Shown: positions 1-45,453 of the stretch, piece by piece
How the letters are laid out: each line of letters opens with the position of its first letter
How positions within the stretch are numbered: the first letter of the stretch is position 1
Sequence record: OR911938.1
Direction: 5' to 3' (one strand)
Length of the DNA stretch: 45,453 bases
Origin: Escherichia phage vB_EcoS_SD276
Position numbers and translations under genes: made by a program
Notes under the pieces: model-generated
The model's input: the letters and a program-made list of their open reading frames with translations, nothing else
Database searches by the model: none
What the model was told of the DNA's origin: nothing

Positions 1-76
1 TATAATCCCCCTTAGATGGCAGGGCCGTCTCCTATGTTGCCGATGGTCGGCGCATATGAACAAAAGGGCTTATATC

Positions 77-628
77 ATGGCAGAAATCAAAGTTAAGGGC
101 CGACGCGCCAAACTGGACGGACGAGTAGCAGTAACCCCGCGCCGTAAACCAGGCGAGCAAACCGAGCATACCAATCTCGGACCGGAAATCGAATACGGAA
201 AGCGCCGTAAAGGCGGCAAATGTGGACGCCCTACTGACTACCGTTCCGTTTACTGCGACCAGCTTCGCCGCTATTTTGCCGACGCCGACGCCTGGCAGGT
301 CAACTACTCCGATAAAGGCGCTGCGCAAGTAATCCCTCGCAACAAAATGCCAACCTTCGGACGATTTGCCGCGGAAATCGGCGTGGGCGTAGCCTGCCTG
401 TATCGCTGGGCGCGTGCACATGAGGAGTTTGCCGAGGCGATGGCGGACGCAATGGAGTTACAAAAAACCTTCCTGATGGAAGCTGGCGGTGTGACCATCG
501 CGGCGGGCTTCGCTACATTCCTGCTTAAAGCAAACCACGGCGTCCGCGACGATGTACCGCTGGATGACGACGAAGATGATAACGGCGACGTCGTTGTCGA
601 ACCTTCCGGCAAAGGCCAGGGTGAATAA
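77..628 (+). CDS. terS: terminase small subunit (alternative upstream ATG at 56)
   Basis: ORF immediately upstream of and overlapping (TAATG) the large terminase; HTH-like segment GRFAAEIGVGVACLYRWARAHEEF; acidic C-terminus; AAAGGG RBS 8 nt before ATG 77. Confidence 0.6.
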   Translation: MAEIKVKGRRAKLDGRVAVTPRRKPGEQTEHTNLGPEIEYGKRRKGGKCGRPTDYRSVYCDQLRRYFADADAWQVNYSDKGAAQVIPRNKMPTFGRFAAEIGVGVACLYRWARAHEEFAEAMADAMELQKTFLMEAGGVTIAAGFATFLLKANHGVRDDVPLDDDEDDNGDVVVEPSGKGQGE

Positions 629-2013
629 TGCGTAACTATGCGGCAGAACACCGCGCACTGGAACGCGCGATCGCAAAGCGCAACCGACCACCACGCCCTA
701 CACGCGTTGCGCAGGCTGTCCGCCTTTACCAGCCGGATTGCTTGCCGCACCAGGTTGAACTATTGCGCGACACGAAGACTAAAATCCTCGGCCTGTGTTC
801 CGGCTTCGGCGGTGGCAAGTCATGGGTTGCCGCACGTAAGGTCATCCAGCTTCTGACACTTAACCCTGGTTATGACGGCATCGTGACCGAACCGACTATT
901 CCACTCCTGGTTAAAATCATGTACCCGGAACTGGAGAAGGCATTCGACGAGGCTGGCTTCCGGTGGAAGTTCAATAAGCAGGACAAGATCTACAATGTGC
1001 TGGTGAAAGGCAAATGGACTCGCGTTATCTGTGAGTCAATGGAGAACTATACCCGCCTGATCGGTATCAACGCCGCGTGGATTGTTGCCGACGAGTTCGA
1101 CACCACGAAACAAGACGTTGCTATGGCGGCATACCACAAACTTCTCGGTCGTCTGCGTGCAGGCGTAGTCCGCCAGTTTGTTATAGTGTCCACGCCGGAA
1201 GGCTTCCGGGCGATGTACCAAATATTCGAGGTGGAGAAAGACAATCAGAAACGCTTGATCCGGGCGAAGACCACGGACAACCACCATTTACCGGCAGACT
1301 TTATCGACACGCTGCGTAGTCAATACCCAGCTAACCTGATCGACGCGTACCTGAACGGCCTGTTTGTTAACCTTACGTCGGGCGCGGTGTACAAGATGTT
1401 CAACCGCGAGGAGAACGCAAGCACCGAAGAAGTGCAGCCGGAAGACACGCTGATTATCGGTATGGACTTTAACGTCACGAAAATGGCGGCGGTCGTGTAC
1501 GTCAGACGGCAGCGAGTCACTGAGAACAAGGAGTTCCGCGACGAGATTCACGCGGTGGATGAATTTGTGGACCTGTTTGACACCCCGGCGATGATTGAGG
1601 CGATCGAGGAGCGCTACCCCGAACATTGTGCCGCCGGTCGTGTTGTCGTCTACCCGGACAGCAGTGGCAAGTCACGCAAGACTGTTAACGCTTCGTCGTC
1701 CGATATCGCACAACTGGAAGACGCGGGCTTCGATGTGGAATATGACAGCGTTAACCCGCCTGTTAAAGACCGATTGATCGCGATGAATACGATGATGTGC
1801 AACTCGAAGGGCGTGCGCCAGTATTTTGTCAACCTGGATAAATGCCCTACACTAGCGAAATGTCTGGAACAGCAGGTGTATGACCTGAAGAAAGGCGAAC
1901 CGGATAAGACCGCCGGTGTGGACCACATGAACGACGCCGCGGGCTATCCTGTTGCGCACCTGTTCCCTGTGATTCGACCGATCGCCGTTGTTCCTACCGT
2001 AGACTTCTACTAA
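628..2013 (+). CDS. terL: terminase large subunit
   Basis: 461 aa; Walker A-like GLCSGFGGGKS, Walker B-like WIVADEFD, C-terminal nuclease-like acidic residues; position between terS and portal. Confidence 0.85.
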   Translation: MRNYAAEHRALERAIAKRNRPPRPTRVAQAVRLYQPDCLPHQVELLRDTKTKILGLCSGFGGGKSWVAARKVIQLLTLNPGYDGIVTEPTIPLLVKIMYPELEKAFDEAGFRWKFNKQDKIYNVLVKGKWTRVICESMENYTRLIGINAAWIVADEFDTTKQDVAMAAYHKLLGRLRAGVVRQFVIVSTPEGFRAMYQIFEVEKDNQKRLIRAKTTDNHHLPADFIDTLRSQYPANLIDAYLNGLFVNLTSGAVYKMFNREENASTEEVQPEDTLIIGMDFNVTKMAAVVYVRRQRVTENKEFRDEIHAVDEFVDLFDTPAMIEAIEERYPEHCAAGRVVVYPDSSGKSRKTVNASSSDIAQLEDAGFDVEYDSVNPPVKDRLIAMNTMMCNSKGVRQYFVNLDKCPTLAKCLEQQVYDLKKGEPDKTAGVDHMNDAAGYPVAHLFPVIRPIAVVPTVDFY

Positions 2014-2024
2014 GGAAACCGACC

Positions 2025-3545
2025 ATGACCGTTAACGTTGACAACCAGCACCCGCTCTATGCGCGCATCGCGCCAGAGTGGAAAATGATCCGTGACTGCG
2101 TAGCAGGGGAGCGCGCCGTGAAGGCGTGCGGCCCATTATACCTGCCACACCCAGCAAGCGGCGACACCACCGACCCGAAATCACGGGCACGGTATAAGGC
2201 GTATAAGCAACGTGCTGTCTTCCTGAACGCCACCGCCCGCACACTGAATGCATTGTTAGGCGTTGCCTTCGCCAAGCCGGTGAGTATAGACCTTACTGGG
2301 GCAATGGCGGACCTGATTGATGACGTAGACGGCAGCGGTATGCCTCTGGCGCAACTCCTGCGCGGCGCTATGTCGGAAGTGCTGCAATCAGGCCGTGCCG
2401 GTTTTATGGTGGACTACGACCGCCAGGCTAACTTTGATGAACTTGGTAACGTAGTGCCGCAGACAGCCGCTGAGATGGCGGCACACCGCCCGCTTATCCG
2501 CCTGTATACGGCAGAGCAGATCATCAACTGGCGGCAGACCCACGGTGTCGACACGCTAATCGTGCTGAAGGAAACGGACGAAATCAGCACCGAAGACCCG
2601 GACGACTTCGCAAACCACGAGGTAACCATCTGGACCGAGCTTCGCATGATTGACGGCAAGGCACATGGTCGACGCTGGTTTTACAACGCGGACACGTCAG
2701 ACGTGCAGATGGACTTGCCGCGCGGCTTCACCCGCACCGACTTAGTGCCGCTGGTGGATGCCTCCGGTAATGCGCTTACTCAACTGCCATTTTGCTGGTG
2801 TGGTGCTGTGGACAACAACGCGACGCCGGACGCCGCACCGCTGGCGGATATTGCATCCATCAACATTAAGCACTACAACGCCGAAGCAGACGTCGCCGAG
2901 ATTGCGCACATTGTGGGCCAACCTACACTCATTGCGACCGGTCTGACCCAATCATGGGCCGATAAAAACCTGAAGGGCGGCATCGCACTAGGCGCGACTA
3001 AGGGCGTTATCCTGGGGCAGAACATGGACGCTAAACTTCTTCAGGCGGAGGAGCGCAACTTGTCTGTTGCCCTGTGTGAGCGTCGAGAATTGCAAATGGC
3101 TAAACTGGGCGCTGCCCTGGTTGAGAAAGGGACTGCACCTAAGACGGCAACCGAAGCGGCCTACGATGCGCAGACCGATAACAGTATCCTGTCGCTTATT
3201 GCCGGTAATGTTGAGAAGGCTTTCAACCGTGCGCTGCAAATCGTCCAGCTATTCACGGGAGACACCGCAACCCAGCAAGTCACGTTGAATAAGTTTTACA
3301 CCGAGATCACGGTAGACGCACAGCTTATGACCGCGATGATGGCAGGTGTGCAGACCGGTACTGTCCGACTGGCTGACTTTATCAAGTGGATGATGGCCCA
3401 GGGCGTCATTGATGACTCGCAAACCGTTGAGCAGGTGGAAGACGAATTGCGAAATCAGAATCCATTGCCTCAAATGTCCCCGGATGCGGTAGAATCTACC
3501 GAAGAAGACCCGGACAAGGTAGCGGACAATGGCGAAGACAATTAA
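2025..3545 (+). CDS. portal protein
   Basis: 506 aa ORF directly after terL, acidic C-terminal tail; size and synteny typical of portal. Confidence 0.75.
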   Translation: MTVNVDNQHPLYARIAPEWKMIRDCVAGERAVKACGPLYLPHPASGDTTDPKSRARYKAYKQRAVFLNATARTLNALLGVAFAKPVSIDLTGAMADLIDDVDGSGMPLAQLLRGAMSEVLQSGRAGFMVDYDRQANFDELGNVVPQTAAEMAAHRPLIRLYTAEQIINWRQTHGVDTLIVLKETDEISTEDPDDFANHEVTIWTELRMIDGKAHGRRWFYNADTSDVQMDLPRGFTRTDLVPLVDASGNALTQLPFCWCGAVDNNATPDAAPLADIASINIKHYNAEADVAEIAHIVGQPTLIATGLTQSWADKNLKGGIALGATKGVILGQNMDAKLLQAEERNLSVALCERRELQMAKLGAALVEKGTAPKTATEAAYDAQTDNSILSLIAGNVEKAFNRALQIVQLFTGDTATQQVTLNKFYTEITVDAQLMTAMMAGVQTGTVRLADFIKWMMAQGVIDDSQTVEQVEDELRNQNPLPQMSPDAVESTEEDPDKVADNGEDN

Positions 3546-4632
3546 TCAATATATGGCGGATCGAATGATCCGCCGGCACATCTTCACCCAGCGCCTGAGC
3601 AATGGCCAGGCGCGAAGGGTGCTGGCTATGTGGGAGAAATTCCGGCCTACATTACTGGGGAAGCTGACCGAGTTGCTTGATGGCAAAAAGTCCATGAATA
3701 ATAAGGCACTTTCCACGCTGTTAACGCAACTCGACAAGACCGTTAAAGCAGAATTGCGCACCGAGTTTAAGGTGTTGGCTGAAAGCCTTCAGGAGTTTGC
3801 CGACACGGAGGCTGATTATCTCGCCGACACATTAACGGCAGCGATCCAGCCGGTGGTCGCCGTACCTGCGGTCGAGGTGGTTGGCGTAGTGACCGGTGCG
3901 CAGATCGCAGCGACGGCTATGAAAAACCCGTTCCAGGGAAATACCATGATGCAATGGCCTGATTCATTGTCTGAGTGGGCCAGGACGCAGATCAGGAATC
4001 AGGTGCGCGCTGGATTCATCCAGGGCAAGCCAACTATGGAAATTATAGCGGACGTGAGGCGCGCGCTCGGCGGTCGTAGTGCGCAAGCCATCTCGAGCGT
4101 TGTTAAGTCCGCAGTCAACCACTATGCGGCGACAGCCCGCGAACTAATGGTAAAAGCAAATGACGATATTCTCGAAGGTCGCCAATGGTTATCTACATTG
4201 GACACGCATACTTCTCCCATGTGCCAGCTACGCGATCGCCTGTTTTATCCGGTTGATGTTACTCCCGACACCAAAGGAAAGCGCGGCGGGAAAGTGGTGG
4301 CTGGGTCACAATATGGCGCTGGTCCGGGCAAGTTGCATTACTGTTGCCGGTCGACGGAGACGTGGAAGGTTAAAGGCATGGAAGATTGGCCCAGTGGTAA
4401 GCGTCCGGCACTGAAGGCTGACGCGGGTCGATTGCTGAGTGAGCAGGTCGACGCGCAGACTGATTTCTTCTCATGGGTGCAGCGCCAGCCGCGCCATATC
4501 CTGGAAGAATTATACGGAGTGCAACGCGCCGACCAGATTATGCGCGGCGTGAAAGTGCCAAAGATGTTCACCGATTCCGGCGAACTGATGACTATTGCAC
4601 AGCTTAAAAACCGGGGGTTGTGGCGTGATTAA
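3529..4632 (+). CDS. minor head / head morphogenesis protein (Mu F / SPP1 gp7-like)
   Basis: 367 aa after portal; C-terminal motif LSTLDTHTSPMCQLRDRLFYPVD resembles the Mu F-family domain. Confidence 0.6.
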   Translation: MAKTINQYMADRMIRRHIFTQRLSNGQARRVLAMWEKFRPTLLGKLTELLDGKKSMNNKALSTLLTQLDKTVKAELRTEFKVLAESLQEFADTEADYLADTLTAAIQPVVAVPAVEVVGVVTGAQIAATAMKNPFQGNTMMQWPDSLSEWARTQIRNQVRAGFIQGKPTMEIIADVRRALGGRSAQAISSVVKSAVNHYAATARELMVKANDDILEGRQWLSTLDTHTSPMCQLRDRLFYPVDVTPDTKGKRGGKVVAGSQYGAGPGKLHYCCRSTETWKVKGMEDWPSGKRPALKADAGRLLSEQVDAQTDFFSWVQRQPRHILEELYGVQRADQIMRGVKVPKMFTDSGELMTIAQLKNRGLWRD

Positions 4633-4954
4633 ATATGCAGCGATTGGACTGGTTATCGGTCTGGCGGTAGGATTCTGGCTAGGCGACTCCTATCGCGCTG
4701 GCGTAGTGGCGGGGGCGGCGCAAGAAGCGCAAGCCCAAGCCCAACGGCAGCAAACTAAAGTTGTTGAGCGCTCCGTGCAGGCCGAACAAGCCCGCGACGT
4801 AGAATACCGGACTATCACGAAAGAGGTTGTTAAATATGTTACGCGCCCTAACCGCCCTGATTGTAGTTTTGATGCTGAGCGCGTGCGGATCAAGCAACGC
4901 GCCGTTGATGCCGCTAACGGAGTCGGCACTGCGACCGCCGTGCAAGTTCGATAG
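4595..4954 (+). CDS. i-spanin (Rz-like); start may be GTG at 4625
   Basis: N-terminal transmembrane helix IKYAAIGLVIGLAVGFWLG followed by Q/A-rich coiled-coil segment; contains an out-of-frame lipoprotein ORF. Confidence 0.5.
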   Translation: MHSLKTGGCGVIKYAAIGLVIGLAVGFWLGDSYRAGVVAGAAQEAQAQAQRQQTKVVERSVQAEQARDVEYRTITKEVVKYVTRPNRPDCSFDAERVRIKQRAVDAANGVGTATAVQVR

Positions 4955-5066
4955 ACCGTCCGCAGACCCCGACGAAGATTTGATGATTGACGTGAAAAAT
5001 ATGGAATGCGGGGCGAAGCTAAGGGCGCAGGTGCTGGAGTTGCAGCAAATAATTAAGGGGCCATAA
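4827..5066 (+). CDS. o-spanin (Rz1-like outer-membrane lipoprotein), overlapping the Rz-like gene in another frame
   Basis: Signal peptide with lipobox LSAC-G, short Pro-containing mature part, embedded in and extending past the i-spanin ORF. Confidence 0.5.
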   Translation: MLNMLRALTALIVVLMLSACGSSNAPLMPLTESALRPPCKFDRPSADPDEDLMIDVKNMECGAKLRAQVLELQQIIKGP

Positions 5067-5080: not shown

Positions 5081-5845
5081 TTAGCGCGGAATGCCGCAAA
5101 TCTCGTTGAGTGTTTTCACATCCAGCGCCACCGCCGTGGATTTTGGCTTGTCCGGGTATGGGATGAATTGCTCAACTTCAGGCCATGCCTTAATCAGCTT
5201 CTTGTCAGTGTTGTGCAGGTCCAGCACACCGGTAACGGTGAGTTTGAACGCATCATACTTCGCGCGCAACTCGCGACGGGCCTTGTCGTTGCGGTCCAGG
5301 CGCTTACAGAAGTCATGGTCCGCCGGGTAATCAACGCGACCGCGTGGGAGATATATCGGCAGCGCTTTCCCATCCTCGTCCACTTCGCACACTGACGCGA
5401 GCATAACTGTCTCGAACCCCGGAACGATATCGCCGAGATCAGGCGCGAGCTTATTCATATATTTCTCTTCCCAGTATCCGCGATGTACGCGGTATTGGCG
5501 ACCGTCACCGCTCAAGGACAAGGTGCGAACATTTCCGCCTGCGTTGATTTCGAAAGTGGCGTCGTAAACGCTGCCGATACCTTTCGGGCGGTCGGTGTTA
5601 TAACTATACGTCGCCTTGTTGGTGTATACGCTGACGCCGTACATCTGCGACTGGTCATCGCGGATTGACAGGATATGCTCGCGTAGCGAGGCGAATGTGC
5701 GAATGCCGTCCGGCATACAGTCCAGCGTGATTGCGTACGCCAGGTCGCGAGAGTCCATCATGATTGTTTTGGCTACGGTAGCGATTTCGTGGTCGCGCAG
5801 GATGTTAGCCAGGATCTGATTTTTAATGTCTTTTGTCAGTCTCAT
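5081..5845 (-). CDS. hypothetical protein (254 aa), antisense cassette gene 2
   Basis: Long ORF on opposite strand to flanking late genes, RBS GAGGACACAAAA-ATG, ends at bidirectional terminator 5057-5079. Confidence 0.6.
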   Translation of the reverse strand: MRLTKDIKNQILANILRDHEIATVAKTIMMDSRDLAYAITLDCMPDGIRTFASLREHILSIRDDQSQMYGVSVYTNKATYSYNTDRPKGIGSVYDATFEINAGGNVRTLSLSGDGRQYRVHRGYWEEKYMNKLAPDLGDIVPGFETVMLASVCEVDEDGKALPIYLPRGRVDYPADHDFCKRLDRNDKARRELRAKYDAFKLTVTGVLDLHNTDKKLIKAWPEVEQFIPYPDKPKSTAVALDVKTLNEICGIPR

Positions 5846-5884
5846 TTTTGTGTCCTCATTATTGGGGCTTTCGCCCCGATTGGT

Positions 5885-6199
5885 TTAGTTGAATTTGATG
5901 TTGCCACCGGTGGAAGTTAAGCGGGCACATACAGCTTCAACGGCATCGACGCACATGAAATCGTTAAAGGCTTCGACCAGGGAGTTTATGAAAGATGCCG
6001 GAACCAGGCCGCAAGCCGGATTATCGAATATCGCGGAGTTGATCGCCGCTTTTGCCGCTTCAGAAGCATTCATGCTCTGGCACAGATTCAGCGCTTCAGC
6101 GTTACGCATTGCGTGAAAGGTAAAGGTATTCGCTACGGTAGCTTTATTGAAACGGGCCATTGCGGCGTCTACTGGAGTTGCTACGGTCATGTTAGTCAT
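5885..6199 (-). CDS. hypothetical protein (~105 aa), antisense cassette gene 1
   Basis: ORF with RBS AAGGAAGACAAA-ATG downstream of a sigma70-like promoter (6235-6264, minus). Confidence 0.5.
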   Translation of the reverse strand: MTNMTVATPVDAAMARFNKATVANTFTFHAMRNAEALNLCQSMNASEAAKAAINSAIFDNPACGLVPASFINSLVEAFNDFMCVDAVEAVCARLTSTGGNIKFN

Positions 6200-6234
6200 T
6201 TTGTCTTCCTTCATATCTCTGTTGGTGTGCAACC

Positions 6235-6264
6235 AATATACCGCAACCAACATTCGCAATGCAA
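6235..6264 (-). promoter_or_regulatory. sigma70-like promoter for antisense cassette (TTGCAT-N18-TATATT)
   Basis: Hexamers read on minus strand; followed by GGTTGCACACCAAC and RBS. Confidence 0.5.
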
Positions 6265-6299: not shown

Positions 6300-6353
6300 T
6301 AAGGCGTGAAGTCAAGCGGGTGGCCCGCTTTGCCACAATCCCAGGGGGATAGC

Positions 6354-7058
6354 ATGAAACTTACTAAAGCAGAATATGACGCGTTGCCAGAAGGCATGAA
6401 GGCTTTATTTGTTGCCGATGGCGATGGGTATAAATCCACGTTCATGACCGCCGAAGAAGTACAGGCGGAGATCAAGGGTCTGAAAGACAACAACGCGAAG
6501 CTGGTTAGCGAGAAGAAAGCAGAAGCCGAACGTCGCGCCGAAGCCGAGCGCCTTGCGAAAGAGAAAGAGGAAGCCGCCGCGCGCAAAAATGGCGACCTCG
6601 AAGCGATCGATAAGTCCTGGAAAGATAAGTTCGCAAAACATGAAGCGGACACATCTGGGAAGATCGAAGCCTACCGCAAGCAGATCCACGACCTAACCAT
6701 CGGCAGCGCTGCCAAAGATTTGGCCTCGAAGCTGTTCGGTAAGAATGCAGGCATCATGCAACGCCACGTTATGGACCGCCTCACGCTGGAAGACGGCGAA
6801 GACGGCAGCCTGAAGGTGCGGGTACTGAAGGACGGCAAACCATCCGCGCTGACTATGGAAGAACTGGAGAAAGAATTCCGTAGTAACGCCGATTTTGCAT
6901 CCGTCCTGGCGGGCACGCCAGCCGGCGGTGCGCCGAGCAAACCGACGCAGGTCGTAGAAGATGTGAAGTCGAAAATCACTATGGGCCACAGCTTCGGTAT
7001 CGCTGACTTGACGAAACAGGCAGGGGATATCATCGCTAAAATGGGCGACGACGAGTAA
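6354..7058 (+). CDS. head scaffolding protein
   Basis: Charged coiled-coil-like protein (KKAEAERRAEAERLAKEKEEAAARK) immediately upstream of major capsid gene; RBS AGGGGGA. Confidence 0.6.
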   Translation: MKLTKAEYDALPEGMKALFVADGDGYKSTFMTAEEVQAEIKGLKDNNAKLVSEKKAEAERRAEAERLAKEKEEAAARKNGDLEAIDKSWKDKFAKHEADTSGKIEAYRKQIHDLTIGSAAKDLASKLFGKNAGIMQRHVMDRLTLEDGEDGSLKVRVLKDGKPSALTMEELEKEFRSNADFASVLAGTPAGGAPSKPTQVVEDVKSKITMGHSFGIADLTKQAGDIIAKMGDDE

Positions 7059-7062
7059 GCAG

Positions 7063-7087
7063 ATCGCCCGCGAAAGCGGGCGATTTT
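7063..7087 (+). terminator. intrinsic terminator/attenuator after scaffold gene
   Basis: ATCGCCCGC-GAAA-GCGGGCGAT followed by TTTTG. Confidence 0.5.
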
Positions 7088-7155
7088 GCGAGCGCGTAAA
7101 TCTAAGGTAACATTAACGACACTGAGCGAATGCTCACAACTCAAAGGATTCTAAT

Positions 7156-8256
7156 ATGTCTTTAACAGTGTTCCAGCGTAAACTCGTCACCGCGGTTACG
7201 CAAATGATTCCCGATAACCTGAACGTGTTCAACGCTGCCGCTAACGGCGCTGTTGTTCTCGGCACGGGTGAAGTGCTGAAGGACGTTGTAGAAAAAATGT
7301 CCGTAGGCTTGATCGCCAACCTCGTTACCGACCGTAACGCCTACGCCCCTGTCGGTACTCCGGCGACCGCAAAAGTTCTGGCGCGTATGCTGACCAACTC
7401 GGTTAACCTTTCCGCGAAAGTGGGTCCGGTAGCAATCACTAAGGCCATGATGGCTAAGATTGAAACCAACGTTAACAGCGTTGCGGCTGAGATTGCGGCA
7501 CAGGCTACTCAAGCGATTATGCTGCATTACCTGAAGGCCGGTATTGGCGCGAGTAAAGCAGCGATCGAAAGCAACGAAGCGGCAAAATACACCCAACCGG
7601 CGCGCGTTGACGGCGTTGGTGGTCGTACCTTCCCGACCCTGGCAGACTTCCCGCTGGCGGCTTCCAAGTTCGGCGATCAGGCGTCTTTGATTAAATCCTG
7701 GTTTATGGACGGCGTTACCTGGGCAAACTTCATCGCTTACCAGGCGCTTCCATCTGCCGAGCAGGTATTCGCGATCGGCGATCTGCAGGTAATGGGCGAT
7801 GGCCTGGGCCGCCGTTTCATTATCTCCGATGCCGCTGCCGATGCAATGGGTGCGGGTAAAATGCTGGGTCTGGTCCCTGGCGCGGTTGCAGTTACCACCA
7901 ACGGCCTTGATATGCTGGCGCAGGAAAAAGGCGGTAACGAGAACATTGAGCGCTGGTGGCAGGGTGAGTTCGACTTCAACGTGGCTGTTAAAGGCTATCG
8001 TCTGAAGGCGTCCGCTCGCACTCCGATCGAAGGTGTGCGCTCGTTCAAACTGGGCGATATCACCACTTCCGCTAACTGGGAACTGGACCAGGGCCAGGTA
8101 GACAACGCACCGGCAACCGTTCAGGATGTTGGCGCTGTTGGTGACGGCGATACTAAAGGCCGTCGTAAGACCCAGGCTGCGCAGGAAGTGCCGACCCGTC
8201 ACATCAAGGAAACGGCGGGCGTACTGGTTACGCTGACCCCGACCAAAGCGTCCTGA
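7156..8256 (+). CDS. major capsid protein
   Basis: 366 aa ORF after scaffold with strong RBS AAAGGA and followed by a strong terminator; position and size. Confidence 0.7.
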   Translation: MSLTVFQRKLVTAVTQMIPDNLNVFNAAANGAVVLGTGEVLKDVVEKMSVGLIANLVTDRNAYAPVGTPATAKVLARMLTNSVNLSAKVGPVAITKAMMAKIETNVNSVAAEIAAQATQAIMLHYLKAGIGASKAAIESNEAAKYTQPARVDGVGGRTFPTLADFPLAASKFGDQASLIKSWFMDGVTWANFIAYQALPSAEQVFAIGDLQVMGDGLGRRFIISDAAADAMGAGKMLGLVPGAVAVTTNGLDMLAQEKGGNENIERWWQGEFDFNVAVKGYRLKASARTPIEGVRSFKLGDITTSANWELDQGQVDNAPATVQDVGAVGDGDTKGRRKTQAAQEVPTRHIKETAGVLVTLTPTKAS

Positions 8257-8274
8257 TCTACGCACATCCCAAAT

Positions 8275-8299
8275 GGGCGGGCTTATGCCCGCCTTTTTT
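8275..8299 (+). terminator. intrinsic terminator after major capsid gene
   Basis: GGGCGGGC-TTAT-GCCCGCC followed by TTTTTT. Confidence 0.7.
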
Positions 8300-8314
8300 A
8301 TAGGAGTGAATACA

Positions 8315-8815
8315 ATGTATGGCGACCCGCAAACCTTTGTTGATTATGCCGCAACGCGAGGCGTTGAAGTCACGCTGAGCGATGCAACGCGACACCTCAC
8401 CGTCGTTAATGACTTCCTTAACGGCATCAACTGGATCGGCGAACCCGCAGACCAGACCGGCATCGACGCATGGCCCCGCCTTAATTACCAGTCGGACGGT
8501 AAGCCGGTGCGCGACACGCTCACTGAAGTTTTGGCAGTAGTGCCTGCAGGGCAAATCGTAGACTTCGCATCAATCCCCGTTGCCGTTGAGCAAGCCGTTT
8601 ACAGGTTGGCGATGTTAGTGGCGGACGAGGTCGATATTTCTCCGGTTGGCAGTGGTAAGGAGACTATCCGCGAAACTGTTGGCCCGATCACGATGGAATA
8701 TGACCCTGCGACGATTGGTAGCGGTGTTTCGTTCCCGTGGTGGGATGGCTTGCTGGGGCACTGGATTGACGCAGACGGCAACGCAGCGGGTAATTTTGAC
8801 GTATTCCGGGGGTGA
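8315..8815 (+). CDS. head-tail connector / adaptor protein (putative)
   Basis: Position after capsid gene; RBS GGAG; track ORF start at 8273 lies inside the upstream terminator hairpin so start moved to ATG 8315. Confidence 0.4.
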   Translation: MYGDPQTFVDYAATRGVEVTLSDATRHLTVVNDFLNGINWIGEPADQTGIDAWPRLNYQSDGKPVRDTLTEVLAVVPAGQIVDFASIPVAVEQAVYRLAMLVADEVDISPVGSGKETIRETVGPITMEYDPATIGSGVSFPWWDGLLGHWIDADGNAAGNFDVFRG

Positions 8816-8816
8816 T

Positions 8817-8933
8817 ATGAATCCTGCATTACTGGCGGCTATTATCGCCGCAAATACTAAACGCCAACCAGAACCGGAACCAGCGCCAGAACCGGAACCA
8901 CCGGTACAGGAGGATGATAATGGCGGGCTTTAA
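8817..8933 (+). CDS. small hypothetical protein (38 aa, Pro/Glu-rich)
   Basis: Short ORF MNPALLAAIIAANTKRQPEPEPAPEPEPP between connector genes; no other support. Confidence 0.25.
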   Translation: MNPALLAAIIAANTKRQPEPEPAPEPEPPVQEDDNGGL

Positions 8934-36425: not shown

Positions 36426-36437
36426 TGTCTCGTCCTC

Positions 36438-36465: not shown

Positions 36466-36473
36466 GGATAATA

Positions 36474-37013: not shown

Positions 37014-37208
37014 GGTATATCTCCGATTGGTTAAGTTTAGGTGTCGACCATTAACTTCGTCGGTGGCCTTAACATAGTGCCCGGTTGCGCGTTCTCCCTT
37101 TCGGGTAGTGGACCGGGTTATATAATCACGGTTGGGAATCCTGACACTTCGATCCGGCCCCTGCGTTGCCCCTCTCCAGTTTGCTTCCTGCATCCTGTCG
37201 ACGAGGTG

Positions 37209-37237
37209 AATATTAGATTGGTTGCAGAAGGGAGTCA
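37209..37237 (-). promoter_or_regulatory. leftward early promoter (TTGACT-N17-TAATAT)
   Basis: Hexamers on minus strand in the divergent control region, GCAACCAATC box in spacer. Confidence 0.55.
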
Positions 37238-37352
37238 ACAACTAATTTAAAAAAAAGCGCCGAAGCAAAATGCGACGGCGCTAACCAATAAGAGACAATG
37301 AGACGGGAATTATTATTACACGCGTGCGCGCCCGTTTCAATATCCAAAGGAT

Positions 37353-37381
37353 TTGACACCGTGCAGTTTTGGGTGTAGTTT
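37353..37381 (+). promoter_or_regulatory. rightward early promoter (TTGACA-N17-TAGTTT)
   Basis: Hexamers on plus strand ~30 nt upstream of HTH gene RBS. Confidence 0.5.
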
Positions 37382-37412
37382 CGTTGGTCATTAGCCAACA
37401 GGAGACTGAATT

Positions 37413-37742
37413 ATGAATATCAAAGAAGCAATTGAAGTGTTATCTAATGCAATCCGCGGCGAAGCGGGTAAATCCTGGTATTACACAAATGCGGTGGATA
37501 CTCTGTTATTTGAAGTGTCCAGATTATCGCGTGCTGAGAAGGAGCTTACCGCGAAGCTGGAATTACTCAACGGCACGGCAGCAAGCAAGCTGCAAAAGCA
37601 CAATGAAGAAATGGAAGAATACAAAAAACAGGTTATCCGTTTGCGCGCCGAGGGCAAATCCTGGGCAATGATCGCTGAGTTGACAGGAATTAATCAGAGC
37701 ACCGTGCGCTCCTGGGTACGCAATAATAAAACTTCGAAGTAA
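37413..37742 (+). CDS. HTH DNA-binding protein, putative transcriptional regulator
   Basis: C-terminal helix-turn-helix-like segment GKSWAMIAELTGINQSTVRSWVRN; first gene after rightward promoter. Confidence 0.5.
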   Translation: MNIKEAIEVLSNAIRGEAGKSWYYTNAVDTLLFEVSRLSRAEKELTAKLELLNGTAASKLQKHNEEMEEYKKQVIRLRAEGKSWAMIAELTGINQSTVRSWVRNNKTSK

Positions 37743-37752: not shown

Positions 37753-40017
37753 ATGAGCTTAATTAAATTCGCGGTAACACGACCCGCTAAAAAAGGCGAA
37801 AAAGCCAGGGCGGAAAACTTCCAGATGACCACCGATGAATTTTTCGAATTTATCAATGACGCGAAAGAAATCTCCTCGGTGCATATCAACAAGACGGAAG
37901 ATAAAGCCGAGTATGCGCGCCGCAAGCGTAAGGCCGATGGCATCGTGGCATATACCAGTGACGGCTTACGCCGCAAGACCAGTGCGGTGGACCGCTCGAT
38001 CCTGTTCTTCGATATTGACCGTACCGACACCCGCACCCTACGCCGCTGCCGTAAGGCTTTCATCGACGCGGGGCTGGAGCATGTATTCCACACAACCACC
38101 GGCGACCGCCACCCACTGAAAGGCGGAACGCGTTGCGCTCGCTTCCTGGTACTCACTGACAAGCCTGTCCCGGCTGAAGACCTGGGCCGTGTCCAGTATG
38201 CGCTATTACACCAACTTGGTCTGTCAGATGTGGACTTCGACGATTGTACGAAGGACACAAACCGTCTTATGTACCTGCCTCACCAGCAGTCTGTCATTAA
38301 GTGCCACCACGGCAAGCGCGCCAATGTGCGGCGTCTGCTCCGCCTGGCGGACAAGCTGGGGGTGGAGAAAGAGGAAGTACGCCGCGAGCTTACCCAGGGC
38401 GACGACGCAGTGGCGGACGGTATTCTGGACTGGTGCTTCCAGGCAGGATTCGAGGAGTTATCTTCCGGTCGCGGTTATGAAGTTCCGTGCCCGAACGAGC
38501 ATCTGCACAGCGGCGAAGGGTCGACGGCTATCATGGTTAAGGATGGCGAGATCCGTTTCAAATGTATGCACACCGGCAACGAGTGTTGCTCGGAGCTAAA
38601 TAGACACCAGCACCTTGCGCTACGTCTTATCGGGATACCGGACCACCTGAACGTCGAGCCGCACAACATGTCCCGTAAGCAAATCGCCGCCATCCTCCCA
38701 GGGCTGGACGACGAGGAAGTCGAATCCTTATATGAACATATTGTTGATGCGGTTGGCGACGGCGAAGAATACGGCGTGTGCACCGATGCGGATCTGGATA
38801 ACGAGCCGGTTGCGCTGTTCAGTAAGCACGACCCGATCATCGAGGGGTTGATTAACTTTAAATCGACCTGGTATATGGCGGGTGAGTCGAATATCGGCAA
38901 GTCCTTCTACGTGCTGGGGCAGATGGGCGCGGTTGCCGCGGGGATCCCGTTTGGTGGTGCGAAGGTAGTCCAGTCGCATTGCTTCTATTTTGATGCGGAA
39001 GGCGGCGAAGCCTCCAACCAGCGCAAAGAAGCATTGCAGATTAAATATGAGCACGACCTGGACAAGCTGCACATTATAGACCTGCAATCCCGCGGCTGGG
39101 ATATCACCAGCAAGTCCGGTTTGCGCGAAGTTATCAGCTTTATCAACCGCACTGCTAACGGCGAACCGGTTGGCCTGGTGGCGTTCGACTCACTCAACCA
39201 GACTGTTGCGCTGCGGTCCGCCGATGCTAAACCGTTTGACGAGAACAACGCCAGCGATATGGGTGAAGTGGTCAAAGCGCTGAAAGCCATTGCGGAAAAT
39301 ACAGGTGGCAGTGCGGGCGTCATCCACCACCCGGCGAAGGGTGCAAACGGCAGCAGATCTCCCCGTGGGTCCGGCGCACTGCATGGCGCTGTCGATTCTG
39401 CGTTCTTCCTGGAACAGCCGGACGACAACCAGCCGGGACAACTTAACCTGTACCACGAAAAATCACGTAACGGCATCAAGCAAGCGCCGCGTGGCTTCGT
39501 CCTGCTCAAGTGCAAGGTGGAGGTGGATCTCCGCAAGTCAGAAGCGTTCGCGTCGCACCAGTCCACCAGCACCGGGCCGGACTTCGGAGACGTCGTTGCC
39601 GGTTGGGACGTCAAACCAATTGCGTCCACCCCGCGCGATGAGACTCTATACCTCGTACCGGTCGCCCTGGAACCGTTCGCTATAGAACAGGCGAAGGCGG
39701 CGGGCAAAGCCGCAGTTAAGGAAGAAAACGCCGCCGGTCCGCGCAACGAAAAAGAGAAAGTGCTTTATGCGGCCCTGGAAAAACTGATGGAAGATAACCC
39801 GAACCATACCGGCTTCAGTAAATCGGCAATTGTCCGCCAGGCTGGACTCGCGAAGGGTGGTACTTCGACGAAGGCAATCGACGATATGGTCGAGCGCGGC
39901 GTGATTGGTTTCTATTCAGATCCGCACACCGGGGCCATCTATGGGTCGTCGAATTTAGTCATCAAATCGGATATCCCCATAACGCTTTCGGCGACCGATG
40001 ATGACCTGAACGATTAA
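37753..40017 (+). CDS. primase-polymerase (AEP-like) / helicase-ATPase fusion protein
   Basis: N-terminal DxD motif ILFFDIDRTD, central Cys/His zinc-binding region, C-terminal RecA-like ATPase with Walker A GESNIGKS and Walker B LVAFDSLNQ. Confidence 0.7.
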   Translation: MSLIKFAVTRPAKKGEKARAENFQMTTDEFFEFINDAKEISSVHINKTEDKAEYARRKRKADGIVAYTSDGLRRKTSAVDRSILFFDIDRTDTRTLRRCRKAFIDAGLEHVFHTTTGDRHPLKGGTRCARFLVLTDKPVPAEDLGRVQYALLHQLGLSDVDFDDCTKDTNRLMYLPHQQSVIKCHHGKRANVRRLLRLADKLGVEKEEVRRELTQGDDAVADGILDWCFQAGFEELSSGRGYEVPCPNEHLHSGEGSTAIMVKDGEIRFKCMHTGNECCSELNRHQHLALRLIGIPDHLNVEPHNMSRKQIAAILPGLDDEEVESLYEHIVDAVGDGEEYGVCTDADLDNEPVALFSKHDPIIEGLINFKSTWYMAGESNIGKSFYVLGQMGAVAAGIPFGGAKVVQSHCFYFDAEGGEASNQRKEALQIKYEHDLDKLHIIDLQSRGWDITSKSGLREVISFINRTANGEPVGLVAFDSLNQTVALRSADAKPFDENNASDMGEVVKALKAIAENTGGSAGVIHHPAKGANGSRSPRGSGALHGAVDSAFFLEQPDDNQPGQLNLYHEKSRNGIKQAPRGFVLLKCKVEVDLRKSEAFASHQSTSTGPDFGDVVAGWDVKPIASTPRDETLYLVPVALEPFAIEQAKAAGKAAVKEENAAGPRNEKEKVLYAALEKLMEDNPNHTGFSKSAIVRQAGLAKGGTSTKAIDDMVERGVIGFYSDPHTGAIYGSSNLVIKSDIPITLSATDDDLND

Positions 40018-40127
40018 AATTTGCGCGCATTGGTTGCCGATATGGGAATTCCCATATCGCTAAAAGACTAAAATTTGCGCGCATTGGTTGCCATTTTGAG
40101 TGTTTTTAGCTGGTCGCATTGGTTGCC
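40016..40127. repeat. GCATTGGTTGCC iteron-like direct repeats (3 copies) with inverted copy at 40398-40409
   Basis: AAAATTTGCGCGCATTGGTTGCC at 40016-40038 and 40070-40092, GCATTGGTTGCC at 40116-40127; flanks 20-bp perfect palindrome GATATGGGAATTCCCATATC (40039-40058). Confidence 0.6.
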
Positions 40128-40153
40128 GTGTAGTGTAAATATAATGAATAGTT

Positions 40154-40338
40154 ATGCAGTTTTATTGCATAAAGTAAGCGGGACAAAAAGAGGGACAGAC
40201 CAGGGGCGGGACAAAGCGGGACAGCACCCCCGTCCCGCCCCGGATGACGCGGCCTGGCGGGGAGCGGGACAGGCGGGACAAACCCCAGTCTTTCAGACTA
40301 GACGGGGGTCATTGGCCCCCCTCGTCTGAGACTGAATA
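40154..40338. repeat. GGGACA-rich non-coding element, copy B
   Basis: TTGCATAAA-N-GCGGGACA array ending in the same 53-bp module as copy A (identical by eye). Confidence 0.7.
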
Positions 40339-40493
40339 AAATCCGGGATTGCAAAATACACGGCAGCACATTGGAAATCGCGGTCGTCGACGAACTAGGC
40401 AACCAATGCGAGATGCGGAATGGTGGGTGGAAAATGCAGTTTGCATTTGCAACGGATAGCGATCGACTTTTTCATACGCGTGATTAATATTGG

Positions 40494-40522
40494 TTGCATT
40501 CGTGCCCGCACCCTGCTAGATT
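40494..40522 (+). promoter_or_regulatory. sigma70-like promoter (TTGCAT-N17-TAGATT)
   Basis: Followed by GGTTGCACACCAAC, the same motif that follows the -10 of promoter 6235-6264. Confidence 0.5.
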
Positions 40523-40550
40523 GGTTGCACACCAACATGAGGACCGAACA

Positions 40551-42382: not shown

Positions 42383-42673
42383 ATGGATAAGCTAAACGAG
42401 TGGCTATTCGCCCTGGCATGTCTGGCGGGTGGCTTCGTAGGCGCACGCATTCATGGCGAGGCCACGAAAGGGCCACTAAACTTCGTTTTGTATGTTGTAG
42501 TTGGCTTCCTGTGTGCCATATTTGGCGCACCGGCTATTGCCGAGTGGGCTGGTTTGTCGGGCGAGCGCACTGTCGCCGGTTTAGGCTTCGTAACCGCAAT
42601 CTTCTGGATGCCAATCGCCGACCGGATCCGGGAGACTATTGCGTCGTTCCGACTTCCGGGGGGTGCAAAATGA
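42383..42673 (+). CDS. holin-like membrane protein
   Basis: 96 aa with three predicted hydrophobic segments, immediately upstream of lysozyme gene. Confidence 0.5.
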   Translation: MDKLNEWLFALACLAGGFVGARIHGEATKGPLNFVLYVVVGFLCAIFGAPAIAEWAGLSGERTVAGLGFVTAIFWMPIADRIRETIASFRLPGGAK

Positions 42674-42915
42674 TTATCTCCGTCCTGTTGTTTGTTATCA
42701 TAGGGGCTTCGTCCCTGTTTAACGTGTATGCGCCGTCCGTCCAGGATGGCATTTTCGGTCGGGTGCTGTATCTGTTAACGGCAATGGTCTGTATTATCGG
42801 ATTGTTGCAAACAGGAGACGTATCTGATACCACCTGGACCGCGTTAATCTGGCTGTTTGCATTGCGCACACTGCGTAATGCTGTTTTGAATGGGGTAAAA
42901 CATGCGATTCAGTGA
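42670..42915 (+). CDS. second small membrane protein (holin/antiholin candidate)
   Basis: 81 aa, hydrophobic segments; overlaps both neighbours. Confidence 0.4.
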   Translation: MIISVLLFVIIGASSLFNVYAPSVQDGIFGRVLYLLTAMVCIIGLLQTGDVSDTTWTALIWLFALRTLRNAVLNGVKHAIQ

Positions 42916-43393
42916 CAACGGTCTACGATTTACGGCAGCATGGGAGGCTTTCAGCCCGGTGCCGTATTTCGCGACCAAGAAAGAGCAGGCCCGCGGCCTG
43001 TACACCTGGGGTTATGGTCATACCGGCACTAACCCGCCGCGAAGCATTACCCGAGCGGAAGCGCTGGATCTGCTTAAGCGCGATGTGGCGTACGCTGAGG
43101 ACTGGGTGAACAAATACGCACATCCGAGCATTAACCAGGCGCAATTCGACGCGCTGGTGGACCTGGTAATCAACGCCGGTCCTGGTCCGATCGTACCGGA
43201 TGACGTCGCGAATGATTTCGATGATGCGGTGCGACTGGGCGACTGGGCGAAGGTCCGGGCTATACTGCCGCAGTTCCGCAAGCAAGGCGGGTCGGTGCTC
43301 TTAGGTCTGGTACGTCGCGCAATCGGCAGACAGGCGCTATTCGATGGTAAGCAGTGGGACGTTGCCGAGAAAATCGGGCGTAACGCAGCATAA
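42902..43393 (+). CDS. endolysin, lysozyme-like (GH24-type)
   Basis: N-terminal catalytic region with WEAF...YTWGYGHTG resembling phage lysozymes. Confidence 0.65.
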   Translation: MRFSDNGLRFTAAWEAFSPVPYFATKKEQARGLYTWGYGHTGTNPPRSITRAEALDLLKRDVAYAEDWVNKYAHPSINQAQFDALVDLVINAGPGPIVPDDVANDFDDAVRLGDWAKVRAILPQFRKQGGSVLLGLVRRAIGRQALFDGKQWDVAEKIGRNAA

Positions 43394-43409: not shown

Positions 43410-43823
43410 ATGTTAAAAAGCATTCTTGATCATAACGCTGACGCGCTCGCCGCGCTGGCTAAAACCGAAGACCCTGGCGCACGCGCTATCATCGCGGACA
43501 CTATCAGCCATGCAGGCGTCTTTGACGCGAAGCTGCCGAGTGTGCCGGAAAGTAAGCCGGTGGCAAGTGCGACCGTAACCATCACCCCAGTGTCAGCCGC
43601 AGTTGGTGCGAAGGCCGCCGCTTCAGTTGCCGTCCTGCCATCCGACGCAACTAACAAGGCTGGGTCGTGGGTGTCTGCAAACCCTGACTGCGCGGCAATC
43701 GATCAGGCTACCGGCGAAATCACAGCAAAATCGGAGGGTAGCGTCCACATCTTTTGGGTGGCGTCCGATGGAGGCGGGGCGCTGGCGTCCGCCATCTTCA
43801 CCGTAACGGGAGCCGCGGAATAA
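43410..43823 (+). CDS. hypothetical protein with bacterial Ig-like (Big_2-like) C-terminal domain
   Basis: Pattern VTITPVSAAV...AIDQATGEITAKSEGSVHIFW typical of Ig-like domains. Confidence 0.45.
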   Translation: MLKSILDHNADALAALAKTEDPGARAIIADTISHAGVFDAKLPSVPESKPVASATVTITPVSAAVGAKAAASVAVLPSDATNKAGSWVSANPDCAAIDQATGEITAKSEGSVHIFWVASDGGGALASAIFTVTGAAE

Positions 43824-43830
43824 AACCACA

Positions 43831-44060: not shown

Positions 44061-45203
44061 ATGCACCCGCAAACCAAAATTACCGACGAGCAATTGATCG
44101 CAGAAATTCAGGCAGGGACTACGGTTAAAGAGATTGCGAAGAAATACGGCATTGCACTTCGTAACGTCTACATGCGCAAAGCCCGCCTGTCTAAAAAAGG
44201 GATTGGTCACGGCAATGATGCAGTGATCCGTAAGCGCGTTGCAGATGGGTTTGGAGTTAAGCGCGTGTCTGCCCTGGTGCGCGGCAATGGCGAAGAGGTC
44301 ATGTCGTGGGTCATCACTGAGCAGGACAAGGAGCGCCAACTCGAAGCCATGCGCGCTGTTGTCGAGGGTATGAACAGCGAAATCACACCGGCAGCGCCAG
44401 TAAACGCCCCGCCAGTACCGGTCCATGCGCTCGACTTGCTCAACCTGTACACCGTGTCAGACTTTCACCTGGGAATGCTGGCATGGGGTGAGGAGACTGG
44501 CGAAGACTGGGATATGGCGATTGCTGAAGACCTGTTCTACCGCTGGTTTGTCGAAGCCTTCGCCCGCGCACCGGACGCAGGAACTGCCGTTATCAATATC
44601 CTCGGGGATATGGCCCACTTTGACAGCCTTGATGCCGTCACACCAGCAAGCGGTCACGTACTGGACGCCGACACACGATACCAGAAACTTGTCCGCTATA
44701 TGATTCGCATGGTGCGCAACGTCGTCGAACTTGCCCTGCAAAAACACCACAAAGTCAAACTGCTAATCGTCCAGGGTAATCATGACGAGTCAGGCATGAT
44801 TTGGCTTGCTGAGATGTTCAACACGCTGTACGAGAACGAGCCGCGCGTCGATGTGGATACGTCCCCGGACGTCTACAAAATGGTGCAGCACGGTAAGACC
44901 ACGCTGTTTTTCCACCACGGGCACAAAGCGCGATTCGATGCTATCGAGCAGGTTATGATCGCCAAATTCAGACAGGCGTTCGGGTCGAGCGAATACAGCT
45001 ACGCGCACGTAGGCCATTTGCACCACCAGAAGATTGTTGAATCCCGCAACATGATTGTTGAACAGCACCGGACGCTCGCAGCGAAAGACGCCTACGCCAG
45101 TCGTGGCGGTTGGATGTCCGGTCGCAGCGCAAACGTCATCACCTATAGCGCCAACTACGGAGAAGTAGCGCGCTTAACCATTAGCCCGGAAATGTTGAAA
45201 TGA
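44061..45203 (+). CDS. calcineurin-like metallophosphoesterase with N-terminal HTH
   Basis: Phosphoesterase motifs DFHLG, GDMAHFD, GNHDE, HHGH, GHLHH; N-terminal TVKEIAKKYGIALRNVYMRKAR. Confidence 0.6.
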   Translation: MHPQTKITDEQLIAEIQAGTTVKEIAKKYGIALRNVYMRKARLSKKGIGHGNDAVIRKRVADGFGVKRVSALVRGNGEEVMSWVITEQDKERQLEAMRAVVEGMNSEITPAAPVNAPPVPVHALDLLNLYTVSDFHLGMLAWGEETGEDWDMAIAEDLFYRWFVEAFARAPDAGTAVINILGDMAHFDSLDAVTPASGHVLDADTRYQKLVRYMIRMVRNVVELALQKHHKVKLLIVQGNHDESGMIWLAEMFNTLYENEPRVDVDTSPDVYKMVQHGKTTLFFHHGHKARFDAIEQVMIAKFRQAFGSSEYSYAHVGHLHHQKIVESRNMIVEQHRTLAAKDAYASRGGWMSGRSANVITYSANYGEVARLTISPEMLK

Positions 45204-45412
45204 TCAGACAAGTATTCATGAGCACGCAGGCCACCCGCCTGAAAGAGCTACGCAAACAACTCGAAGGCTTGCGCCGATTCGAACGAACGGCAGCGGCAAT
45301 AGGCATGTCTATCAGCGAGCGGATCGAGATACTATCTCAAATACGCTACACAGAAGGCGCAATACGCGAAGTAGAAAGCATGTTAACCCGATACTACGGT
45401 CGCGCCGTTTAA
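45200..45412 (+). CDS. hypothetical protein (70 aa)
   Basis: Overlapping start with previous gene. Confidence 0.4.
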   Translation: MIRQVFMSTQATRLKELRKQLEGLRRFERTAAAIGMSISERIEILSQIRYTEGAIREVESMLTRYYGRAV

Positions 45413-45417
45413 CCCTC

Positions 45418-45447
45418 CCAGCCTGCCGATTTGGTGGGCTTTTTTGT
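45418..45447 (+). terminator. possible weak terminator at end of window
   Basis: Imperfect GC-rich stem followed by TTTTTTG. Confidence 0.3.
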
Positions 45448-45453
45448 GCCTGT

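Follow-up and report, generated by a model that had tools for sequence, protein, structure and literature searches.

Escherichia phage vB_EcoS_SD276: its sequence as the probable complete genome of an obligately lytic Dhillonvirus

Introduction

The sequence record OR911938.1 of Escherichia phage vB_EcoS_SD276 comprises 45,453 nucleotides (nt), and this whole stretch (hereafter the window) had been described, in an initial annotation made without database searches, as a whole and probably virulent phage genome whose two ends probably adjoin. The present analysis deals with the gene content, the ends, the packaging mode and the lifestyle encoded in the window. Very probably, this 45,453-bp sequence is the complete genome of an obligately lytic E. 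coli siphovirus of the genus Dhillonvirus (HK578/SSL-2009a/SO-1-like), with headful packaging as its most likely mode.

Genome organization

In total, 58 open reading frames (ORFs) were called, covering 94% of the window. All 58 products were searched against Pfam at E <=0.01, 38 non-obvious proteins against PHROGs and ten unknowns against NCBIfam, and the ten longest uncalled ORFs were also run against Pfam. Packaging, head, tail, replication and lysis functions were all found by means of Pfam and PHROGs, in keeping with the complete and syntenic modules of the initial annotation, except that the lysis module turned out to be split.

The first half of the map lies mostly on the plus strand and opens with terS, encoding the small terminase subunit (77-628, with an alternative in-frame start at 56), which is so named in PC2, SSL-2009a and HK578 and gives weak, below-cut-off Pfam matches to GP3_package (P22 gp3) and Sf6_terminase. 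It is followed by terL, for the large terminase subunit (628-2013; Terminase_6N, 5e-14, and Terminase_6C), whose product is 97-99% identical in amino acids to Dhillonvirus TerL, the next clade being Jerseyvirus/Kagunavirus at about 41%. The genes for the portal (2025-3545; DUF4055, 3e-30) and the head-morphogenesis protein (3529-4632) agree with the annotation of SSL-2009a and HK578. An overlapping i-spanin/o-spanin pair of the Rz/Rz1 type (4625-5066; phrog_2536, phrog_5672 and phrog_1267, all 'Rz-like spanin') comes next, and the o-spanin carries the lipobox LSAC. The stretch from the scaffold to the tail tube (6306-11077) encodes scaffold, capsid, head-tail adaptor, head closure, neck, tail terminator and tail tube. 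In particular, the major capsid protein (7156-8256) is Gp13-like (1.5e-58), and the adaptor, head-closure, tail terminator and tail tube genes lie at 8273-11077; further assignments in the stretch come from Phage_tail_terminator_5, Phage_tail_3, phrog_477, phrog_161 and the annotation of SSL-2009a.

The tail assembly chaperone G and its frameshift extension G-T (11148-11824, plus strand; Phage_TAC_4, 8.7e-22) share a -1 slip site of the canonical kind (A AAA AAC, 11501-11507), with the -1 frame open over 11501-11824. The tape measure protein, the gpM/L/K/I-like minor tail proteins and the J-like tip protein are then encoded at 12207-21064 (plus strand), with the Pfam domains TMP_2, Tape_meas_lam_C, Phage_min_tail, Phage_tail_L, Prok-JAB/NLPC_P60, FNIII-A_GpJ and Phage_Tail_Tip. 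Downstream of gpJ lies a variable locus, occupied here by a minus-strand gene for a DUF6453 protein (21092-22066; PF20051, 1.3e-119; phrog_1265) and in relatives by receptor-binding or Cor-like genes, in line with the concept of a receptor-binding-protein locus in this region (PMC8594841). The lateral tail fibre gene (22361-24787, plus strand), whose product ends in a Peptidase_S74 intramolecular chaperone (PF13884, 2.2e-13), closes the tail module.

A leftward operon of DNA metabolism and replication occupies 24815-37013 on the minus strand (Pfam, PHROGs). Among its products are a polynucleotide kinase/HAD-like protein, a Dam methylase, an HNH endonuclease, a second methyltransferase-like protein, an SNF2 helicase and a Lar-like protein; it also encodes a VRR-NUC protein, DNA polymerase A, a single-stranded DNA-binding protein (SSB) of the gp2.5/Enc34 type, a DUF2800/PD-(D/E)XK exonuclease and small unknown proteins. 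An AT-rich region with promoter-like sites and a GC dip to 0.48 (37014-37412) separates this operon from the rightward early one, which opens with g45, encoding a protein of 109 residues (aa) that consists of a helix-turn-helix (HTH) only (37413-37742, plus strand; HTH_28, HTH_23, Sigma70_r4_2; phrog_9366). The replicative helicase-primase gene follows (37753-40017, plus strand; AAA_25, 2.3e-19; annotated likewise in PC2 and SSL-2009a). Further along the plus strand come holin 1 (42383-42673), holin 2 (42670-42915) and the endolysin (42902-43393; Phage_lysozyme, 6.6e-18), a set matched by phrog_2359, phrog_2508 and phrog_7. The lysis functions are thereby distributed over two places, as the spanins lie inside the head module, some 6.7 kb from the endolysin when measured across the junction of the window ends.

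The last genes form a plus-strand cassette at 44061-45412. It comprises a gene for a protein with an N-terminal HTH and a calcineurin-like (Mre11/SbcD-type) phosphoesterase domain (44061-45203; phrog_704 'DNA repair exonuclease', 3.6e-161), in which Metallophos and GerE give weak, below-cut-off matches, and a gene for a 70-aa protein (45200-45412; phrog_20931). The HTH, at aa 14-46, is of the LuxR/GerE type at the same below-cut-off level, and a homologue of the phosphoesterase has been labelled by other annotators as a transcriptional regulator or HTH luxR-type protein.

Some further features were noted along the way. Within the head module, two reverse-strand genes (5081-6259; phrog_1965 and phrog_24635 for the pair) encode a protein with nucleotide modification associated domain 5 (5081-5845; PF18757 Nmad5, 4.9e-58) and a protein of no assigned function (5885-6259); no DNA modification beyond methylation is known in Dhillonviruses. 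In the leftward operon, the 231-aa product of 28060-28755 (minus strand) belongs to PHROG 757 'DNA methyltransferase', has no Pfam or NCBIfam match and contains an FPPC...ENP pattern that is reminiscent of motifs IV and VI of C5-cytosine methyltransferases. In the divergent region, a terminator-like hairpin on the minus strand (37256-37282) stands beside an A8 run, that is U8 on that strand. A leftward promoter-like site (TTGAAA-17-AATAAT with TG, 37340-37312) lies just upstream of this hairpin, which in turn precedes the first leftward gene; the hairpin could possibly give a short leftward RNA or act as an attenuator.

Relationship to known phages

Both halves of the window were compared by megablast with 50,697 phage records, and 168 and 182 of these matched the two halves, nearly all of them Escherichia or Shigella phages of the genus Dhillonvirus. 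The matching records are 90-95% identical to the window in nt, and more than 120 of them cover at least 80% of its first half. PC2, SSL-2009a, Gluttony, EK99P-1, JL1 and others, in all more than 120 complete Dhillonvirus genomes of 43-47 kb, are 92-95% identical across 90-100% of the length. The closest record is PC2 (ON184124 / NC_073088; 45,201 bp, deposited as circular), with 94.9% nt identity over the first 25 kb; the window spans 99.9% of PC2 and PC2 spans 99.4% of the window, the sole window-specific stretch being 43541-43829. With reciprocal coverage of at least 99% to a circular genome of 45,201 bp and a length within the range of the genus, 43-46 kb (PMC8594841), the description of the window as a whole phage genome is well supported.

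It is extremely unlikely that the window belongs to a larger replicon, be it a prophage region, a larger phage or a misassembled concatemer, or that the genome is incomplete. The record of P-GXEC-L2P5, at 88.6 kb and with two copies of the junction between the window ends, indicates that dimer-like assemblies exist, and nothing else specific speaks for this possibility; the gap-free junction, the coverage shared with the 45.2-kb circular genome, ends that are not duplicated internally and the absence from the window of host DNA, tRNA or att-like features all argue against it. Furthermore, the IMG/VR contigs bearing a repeat specific to the genus are all 42.5-45.2 kb long, none being larger. 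As a side observation, P-GXEC-L2P5 (PQ843332.1) suggests a dimeric assembly of its own, and the record of 'Acinetobacter phage NJ01' (OQ221563.1) is 93% identical to the window, making its host label doubtful.

Membership of the genus was examined by similarity, by size, GC content and tRNA genes, and by gene order, and the window agrees with Dhillonvirus on all three. The identities given above exceed the ICTV genus threshold, which was taken as about 70% genome-wide nt similarity. The GC content is about 0.54 (0.48-0.57 in 2-kb windows, mostly 0.53-0.57) and no tRNA genes were found in the window; Dhillonvirus genomes have about 42-47 kb, about 54.5% GC and no tRNA genes (PMC10059673, PMC6563267, PMC8594841). 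The gene order is collinear with PC2 and SSL-2009a, from terS-terL-portal through the tail genes, the leftward replication operon, the helicase-primase and the lysis genes to the phosphoesterase. As the best database match stays just under 95%, the phage is therefore a new species- or strain-level member at most. The tail gene set, together with the hosts recorded for near-identical isolates, would point to siphovirus morphology and a host in E. coli or Shigella.

PC2 also has the DUF6453 gene, a lateral fibre of 808 aa and, upstream of terS, the 70-aa gene. PC2 differs in about 5-7% of nucleotides and in lacking 43541-43829, which encodes the C-terminal Ig-like (Big_2) part of the protein after the endolysin. 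SSL-2009a (NC_012223) and HK578 (JQ086375), the latter being the type species of Dhillonvirus, have the same architecture and are 93-94.5% identical where aligned. In contrast to PC2, SSL-2009a does not share window 20874-22233, the locus downstream of gpJ, or 22877-24783, the distal lateral fibre; it carries a Cor-like gene and two plus-strand genes in place of the DUF6453 gene and is without the 70-aa gene. Mosaicism at the locus downstream of gpJ and in the distal fibre is the known host-range mosaic of small siphoviruses.

At a greater distance, the Guernseyvirinae (Jerseyvirus and Kagunavirus, such as fPoEco01) also begin with terS and terL and have a spanin among the head genes, a leftward operon with Pol A, helicase and exonuclease, a helicase-primase, a holin-holin-endolysin set and a metallophosphoesterase, and their TerL is about 41% identical, but they show no nucleotide similarity to the window. 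In Kagunavirus, moreover, the frameshift product of the chaperone gene directly adjoins the tape measure gene, and no intergenic module separates the two. Temperate siphoviruses of the lambda type share the homologous C-terminal domain of the tape measure protein, the gpM/L/K/I/J domains and the G/G-T frameshift, whereas the window has its own DNA polymerase and lacks an integrase/excisionase, a CI/Cro region and a cos terminase of the Nu1/A type.

The ends of the record

The initial annotation had proposed that the two ends of the window probably meet in the real genome and that terS is truly preceded by the cassette at 44061-45412, and both proposals agree with the records of relatives. Indeed, a query that joins the last 500 nt to the first 500 nt gives a single 1000-to-1000-nt alignment in 48 records that are opened elsewhere, and against PC2 the junction lies in a 1197-nt alignment with 0 gaps. 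The contiguous junction ...TTTTTTGTGCCTGT|TATAATCCCC... is also present in metagenome-assembled IMG/VR contigs, which have no curated start. In a further group of genomes the query splits in two for want of the 70-aa gene (45200-45412), and the phosphoesterase gene still adjoins terS. Since the end and the start of the window are contiguous and gap-free in relatives, the cassette truly lies upstream of terS. No terminal repeat was found between the two window ends.

The first and last bases of the window are exactly those at which the records of SSL-2009a, EK99P-1 and four bov phages begin and end, and SSL-2009a was deposited as circular. Because they are shared with SSL-2009a and other records in this way, the window ends represent a deposit convention and no evidence of physical termini. 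Other records open differently: that of HK578 at the terS ATG, that of Oekolampad at window 77 and that of PC2 inside the DNA polymerase gene. A further start is used by UDS3lw, PTXU06 and Pandora71, at window ~40450, and by HH3 at 40340, right after a GGGACA-rich module described below. This was considered as a pac site determined with PhageTerm and discarded; since the first coding sequence begins at nt 101-102 in all four records and the source paper of PTXU06 reports no analysis of termini, it is a second deposit convention.

Around the junction, the sequence had been described as starting 76 nt before terS and ending at a terminator. The latter holds, with a hairpin at 45420-45440 and a T-run to 45445, after which eight further bases follow; this terminator-like element after the last gene (45420-45445, plus strand) has compensatory stem changes among relatives. 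The distance of 76 nt is one of two, as the start of terS is ambiguous. Indeed, the ATG at 77, used in the Oekolampad record, has a good AAGGG Shine-Dalgarno sequence, better than that of the in-frame ATG at 56, and the latter is the start in HK578, PC2 and SSL-2009a. The TATAAT hexamer at 1-6 (plus strand) combines with the last bases of the window, TGT (45451-45453), into an extended -10 motif, TGTTATAAT, that reads across the ends and is conserved and contiguous in PC2 and the metagenome contigs. A consensus promoter scan did not call TGTTATAAT, its -35 matching at 3/6 positions only, and the motif may be regarded as a candidate promoter element for terS.

In the picture favoured here, convention placed the opening of the record 76 nt (or 55 nt) upstream of terS, and in the circular or concatemeric replicating form position 45453 directly precedes position 1. 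Immediately upstream of terS there are thus the HTH-phosphoesterase gene, the 70-aa gene and their terminator.

Packaging

The window ends are adjacent in the replicating form under either mode of packaging, headful (pac) or with fixed ends. Headful packaging is the likely mode, judging from related phages. In this case, the terminase would package concatemers by the headful mechanism and generate virion DNA that is terminally redundant and circularly permuted, with no unique ends. Headful or permuted packaging was obtained with PhageTerm for Opt-212 (PMC9022532), for four of five bov Dhillonviruses (PMC8407724), for UDS3lw (PMC13348001) and for BF9 (PMC10059673). Jersey-like phages are regarded as headful packagers, and in a Kagunavirus terS carries the annotation P22 gp3-like. 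Searches of solved structures with TerL and TerS, carried out to classify the packaging type, gave no usable match.

Some observations weigh against headful packaging. The mode assigned to this phage is presumably that of its relatives, from which it is carried over, and the relatives are not unanimous, as bov25_1D was scored with 'fixed' termini (PMC8407724) and PhageTerm gave a 10-nt 5' cos end, ATCTTAAGGG, for EE09 (PMC10673088). In addition, a record start a few dozen nt upstream of terS resembles a cos genome, and cos and pac are indistinguishable from sequence alone. A complete lytic genome with fixed physical ends, cohesive or with short direct terminal repeats, located at the window ends as in lambda or at the EE09 site, is nevertheless improbable, and fixed ends as such are hardly less so. 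In particular, the EE09 motif is absent from the window, also when one mismatch is allowed, and the homologous site (27701-27710, minus strand, ATATTTAGGG) lies between the HNH gene and its neighbour, where it falls on a terminator hairpin. An end of the EE09 type was rejected for the window on both counts, a terminator hairpin inside the leftward operon making 27701-27710 an unlikely place for cos. The agreement of four independent studies on headful or permuted packaging also speaks against fixed ends, as do SSL-2009a, which has the same start and is deposited as circular, and HK578 and the Doore-lab phages, which were oriented to terS on purpose, no ends having been found. Finally, the TerS resembles the P22/Sf6 type in its weak, below-cut-off matches, and that of the Kagunavirus is annotated likewise. 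Headful packaging is thus retained as the likely mode.

Lifestyle

The initial annotation had recognised no integrase, excisionase or CI/Cro-type pair in the window and had named a search with integrase and repressor hidden Markov models (HMMs) as one of the checks. This search was done with Pfam, PHROGs and NCBIfam and brought up no lysogeny protein, the one caveat being the PHROG label of g45. In particular, no integrase, serine recombinase, DDE transposase core, excisionase, Peptidase_S24 repressor, ParA/ParB or protelomerase was found among the 58 proteins and the ten longest uncalled ORFs. After the frameshift region had been recoded, g44 trimmed to 36474-37013 and g17 and g47 dropped, the largest non-coding stretch measures about 530 bp (40018-40550); since genes cover nearly all of the window, a hidden integrase has no room. 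Neither an integrase with a phage attachment site (attP) nor a CI/Cro immunity region, by which a temperate lambdoid phage is recognised, is present in the window.

The genome collections give a similar picture. In 5,426 complete E. coli genomes, with 20,395 replicons, megablast found nothing that matched either half of the window, nor did the second half match any of 72,556 plasmids, whereas the same queries retrieve 160-180 free-phage records. A scan with TerL of one genome per species (185,579 bacterial and archaeal genomes) found relatives at 37-49% identity only. They belong to Acinetobacter, Burkholderiales, Flavobacteriia and groups like these, with no representative among the Enterobacteriaceae. 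In the literature, the SO-1/HK578 cluster is called virulent (PMC9022532), and no lysogeny genes are reported in relatives, which are described as lytic (PMC13348001, PMC10059673). The virulent lifestyle first proposed as probable is thus upheld by the HMM searches, by the lack of copies in E. coli genomes and plasmids and by the literature.

Only one match to the 'integration and excision' category of PHROGs was obtained, that of g45 to phrog_9366, labelled 'transposase', and this match counts against a strictly lytic phage. A reading of g45 as a transposase was considered and rejected, the NCBIfam match being to positions 3-35 of a 299-residue IS630 model, at 19 bits against a cut-off of 100. 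NCBIfam also matches g45 to region 4 of extracytoplasmic function (ECF) sigma factors, far below the cut-off, and the recognisable part of the protein is the C-terminal HTH only. Likewise, g45 and g44 were discarded as a CI/Cro pair: the divergent neighbour g44 encodes an acidic, lysine-rich protein without an HTH, and the gene after g45 is the helicase-primase. Because it is HTH-only, stands opposite a g44 without an HTH and is followed by the helicase-primase gene, g45 is neither a member of a CI/Cro pair nor a transposase. Most likely, judging from its domain and position, it would be an early transcription regulator.

Other points also weigh against an obligately lytic phage. About 20 small proteins are without an assigned function, absence from genome collections is negative evidence, and the authors of the EE09 paper raised possible lysogeny, on weak grounds, PHACTS giving 0.514 for temperate and PhaTYP 0.99 for virulent (PMC10673088). 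One could thus imagine that the phage is temperate, or kept in a carrier or pseudolysogenic state, through an unrecognised system, for instance with g45 and the divergent promoter region at 37.0-37.4 kb as a switch. Besides its PHROG label, g45 sits at a divergent promoter region, as Cro does, and the many small ORFs of no known function and the speculation on EE09 would fit the same idea. Such a lifestyle is nonetheless very unlikely: g45 has 109 aa with nothing beyond the HTH, its divergent partner has none, a catalytic recombinase domain occurs nowhere, shadow ORFs included, and copies in the E. coli genomes and plasmids number zero against the free-phage isolates. The phage supplies its own replication set, made of Pol A, the helicase-primase, the SNF2 helicase, the SSB and the exonuclease, and has no machinery for integration, immunity or plasmid maintenance.

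Non-coding modules and a recurrent 9-mer

Two GGGACA-rich modules of about 195 nt stand out among the non-coding parts of the window. The first (11950-12143) lies in the 382-nt gap between gpT and the tape measure gene (11825-12206), which contains 12 copies of GGGACA, and the second (40145-40339) in the non-coding stretch 40018-40550, together with six copies of the 9-mer ATTGGTTGC. The modules are 84-85% identical to each other, with the last 57 nt, including a terminal hairpin, being identical, and together they hold 18 of the 28 GGGACA hexamers of the window. A perfect 14-bp hairpin (11828-11860) stands ahead of module 1, which overlaps a 32-nt inverted repeat (11910-11941 / 12008-12039) and ends in the conserved terminal hairpin at ~12090-12138. 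In 23 Dhillonvirus loci of IMG/VR both copies are conserved at both places; across Dhillonvirus loci, the CGGGACA repeats and the stem of the terminal hairpin are invariant while its loop is variable. The modules and clusters of GGGACA are absent from Kagunavirus fPoEco01. Two ORFs that overlap them, g17 (11949-12143) and g47 (40075-40329), were rejected as genes, having no family matches and reading through the DNA repeat. With Rfam, the whole window gave no family at gathering thresholds, and a relaxed search of 11500-12210 returned only microRNA hairpins far below threshold, which were set aside as artefacts of the long inverted repeat.

The 9-mer ATTGGTTGC occurs 13 times in the window, where 0.46 copies would be expected and 100 shuffles never gave more than 3, and is the second most frequent 9-mer. 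The copies are at 6229, 22337, 26053, 27714, 27731, 30672, 37217, 40029, 40083, 40118, 40399, 40489 and 40520; 11 are non-coding and two intragenic (26053 in g28; 30680 in the overlap of g36 and g37), and they are mostly oriented along local transcription. Several agree with TTGC(A/T)N taken as the -35 element, a spacer of 16-17 nt leading to a -10-like hexamer. Moreover, the 18-mer ATTGGTTGCACACCAACA precedes two start codons, 17 nt before the ATG at 40551 and 22 nt before the ATG at 6198. PC2 has 13 copies of ATTGGTTGC, SSL-2009a 14 and Kagunavirus fPoEco01 0.

A literature search for ATTGGTTGC returned unrelated primer matches only, and no description of the GGGACA modules or of ATTGGTTGC was found in the literature searched. 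It can tentatively be suggested, as a possibility that is still doubtful, that they form an undescribed, genus-specific set of cis-acting elements. As to their roles, the modules are candidates for an iteron origin beside the helicase-primase gene, a pac signal or structured RNAs; more specifically, they could be a bipartite replication origin bound by the helicase-primase, a pac site at a long distance from terS or two structured small RNAs. In turn, ATTGGTTGC could be an operator or a -35-like target of g45, the HTH protein that resembles sigma region 4.

Concluding remarks

All in all, the genome of vB_EcoS_SD276 is that of an ordinary member of a well-described kind of phage. Dhillonviruses are common and well-sampled coliphages, with more than 150 genomes and several representatives in the BASEL collection, and one more at about 95% identity is unsurprising. 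Nothing in the window suggests lysogeny, host DNA or an unusual replicon, and the sequence can be used as a single circular map in which features near either end are to be read across the junction. Some value for research lies only in side observations, mainly the GGGACA modules and ATTGGTTGC as candidate origin, pac or regulatory sites. If one of the modules were indeed the pac site, the start of the packaging series in the genus would be settled too.

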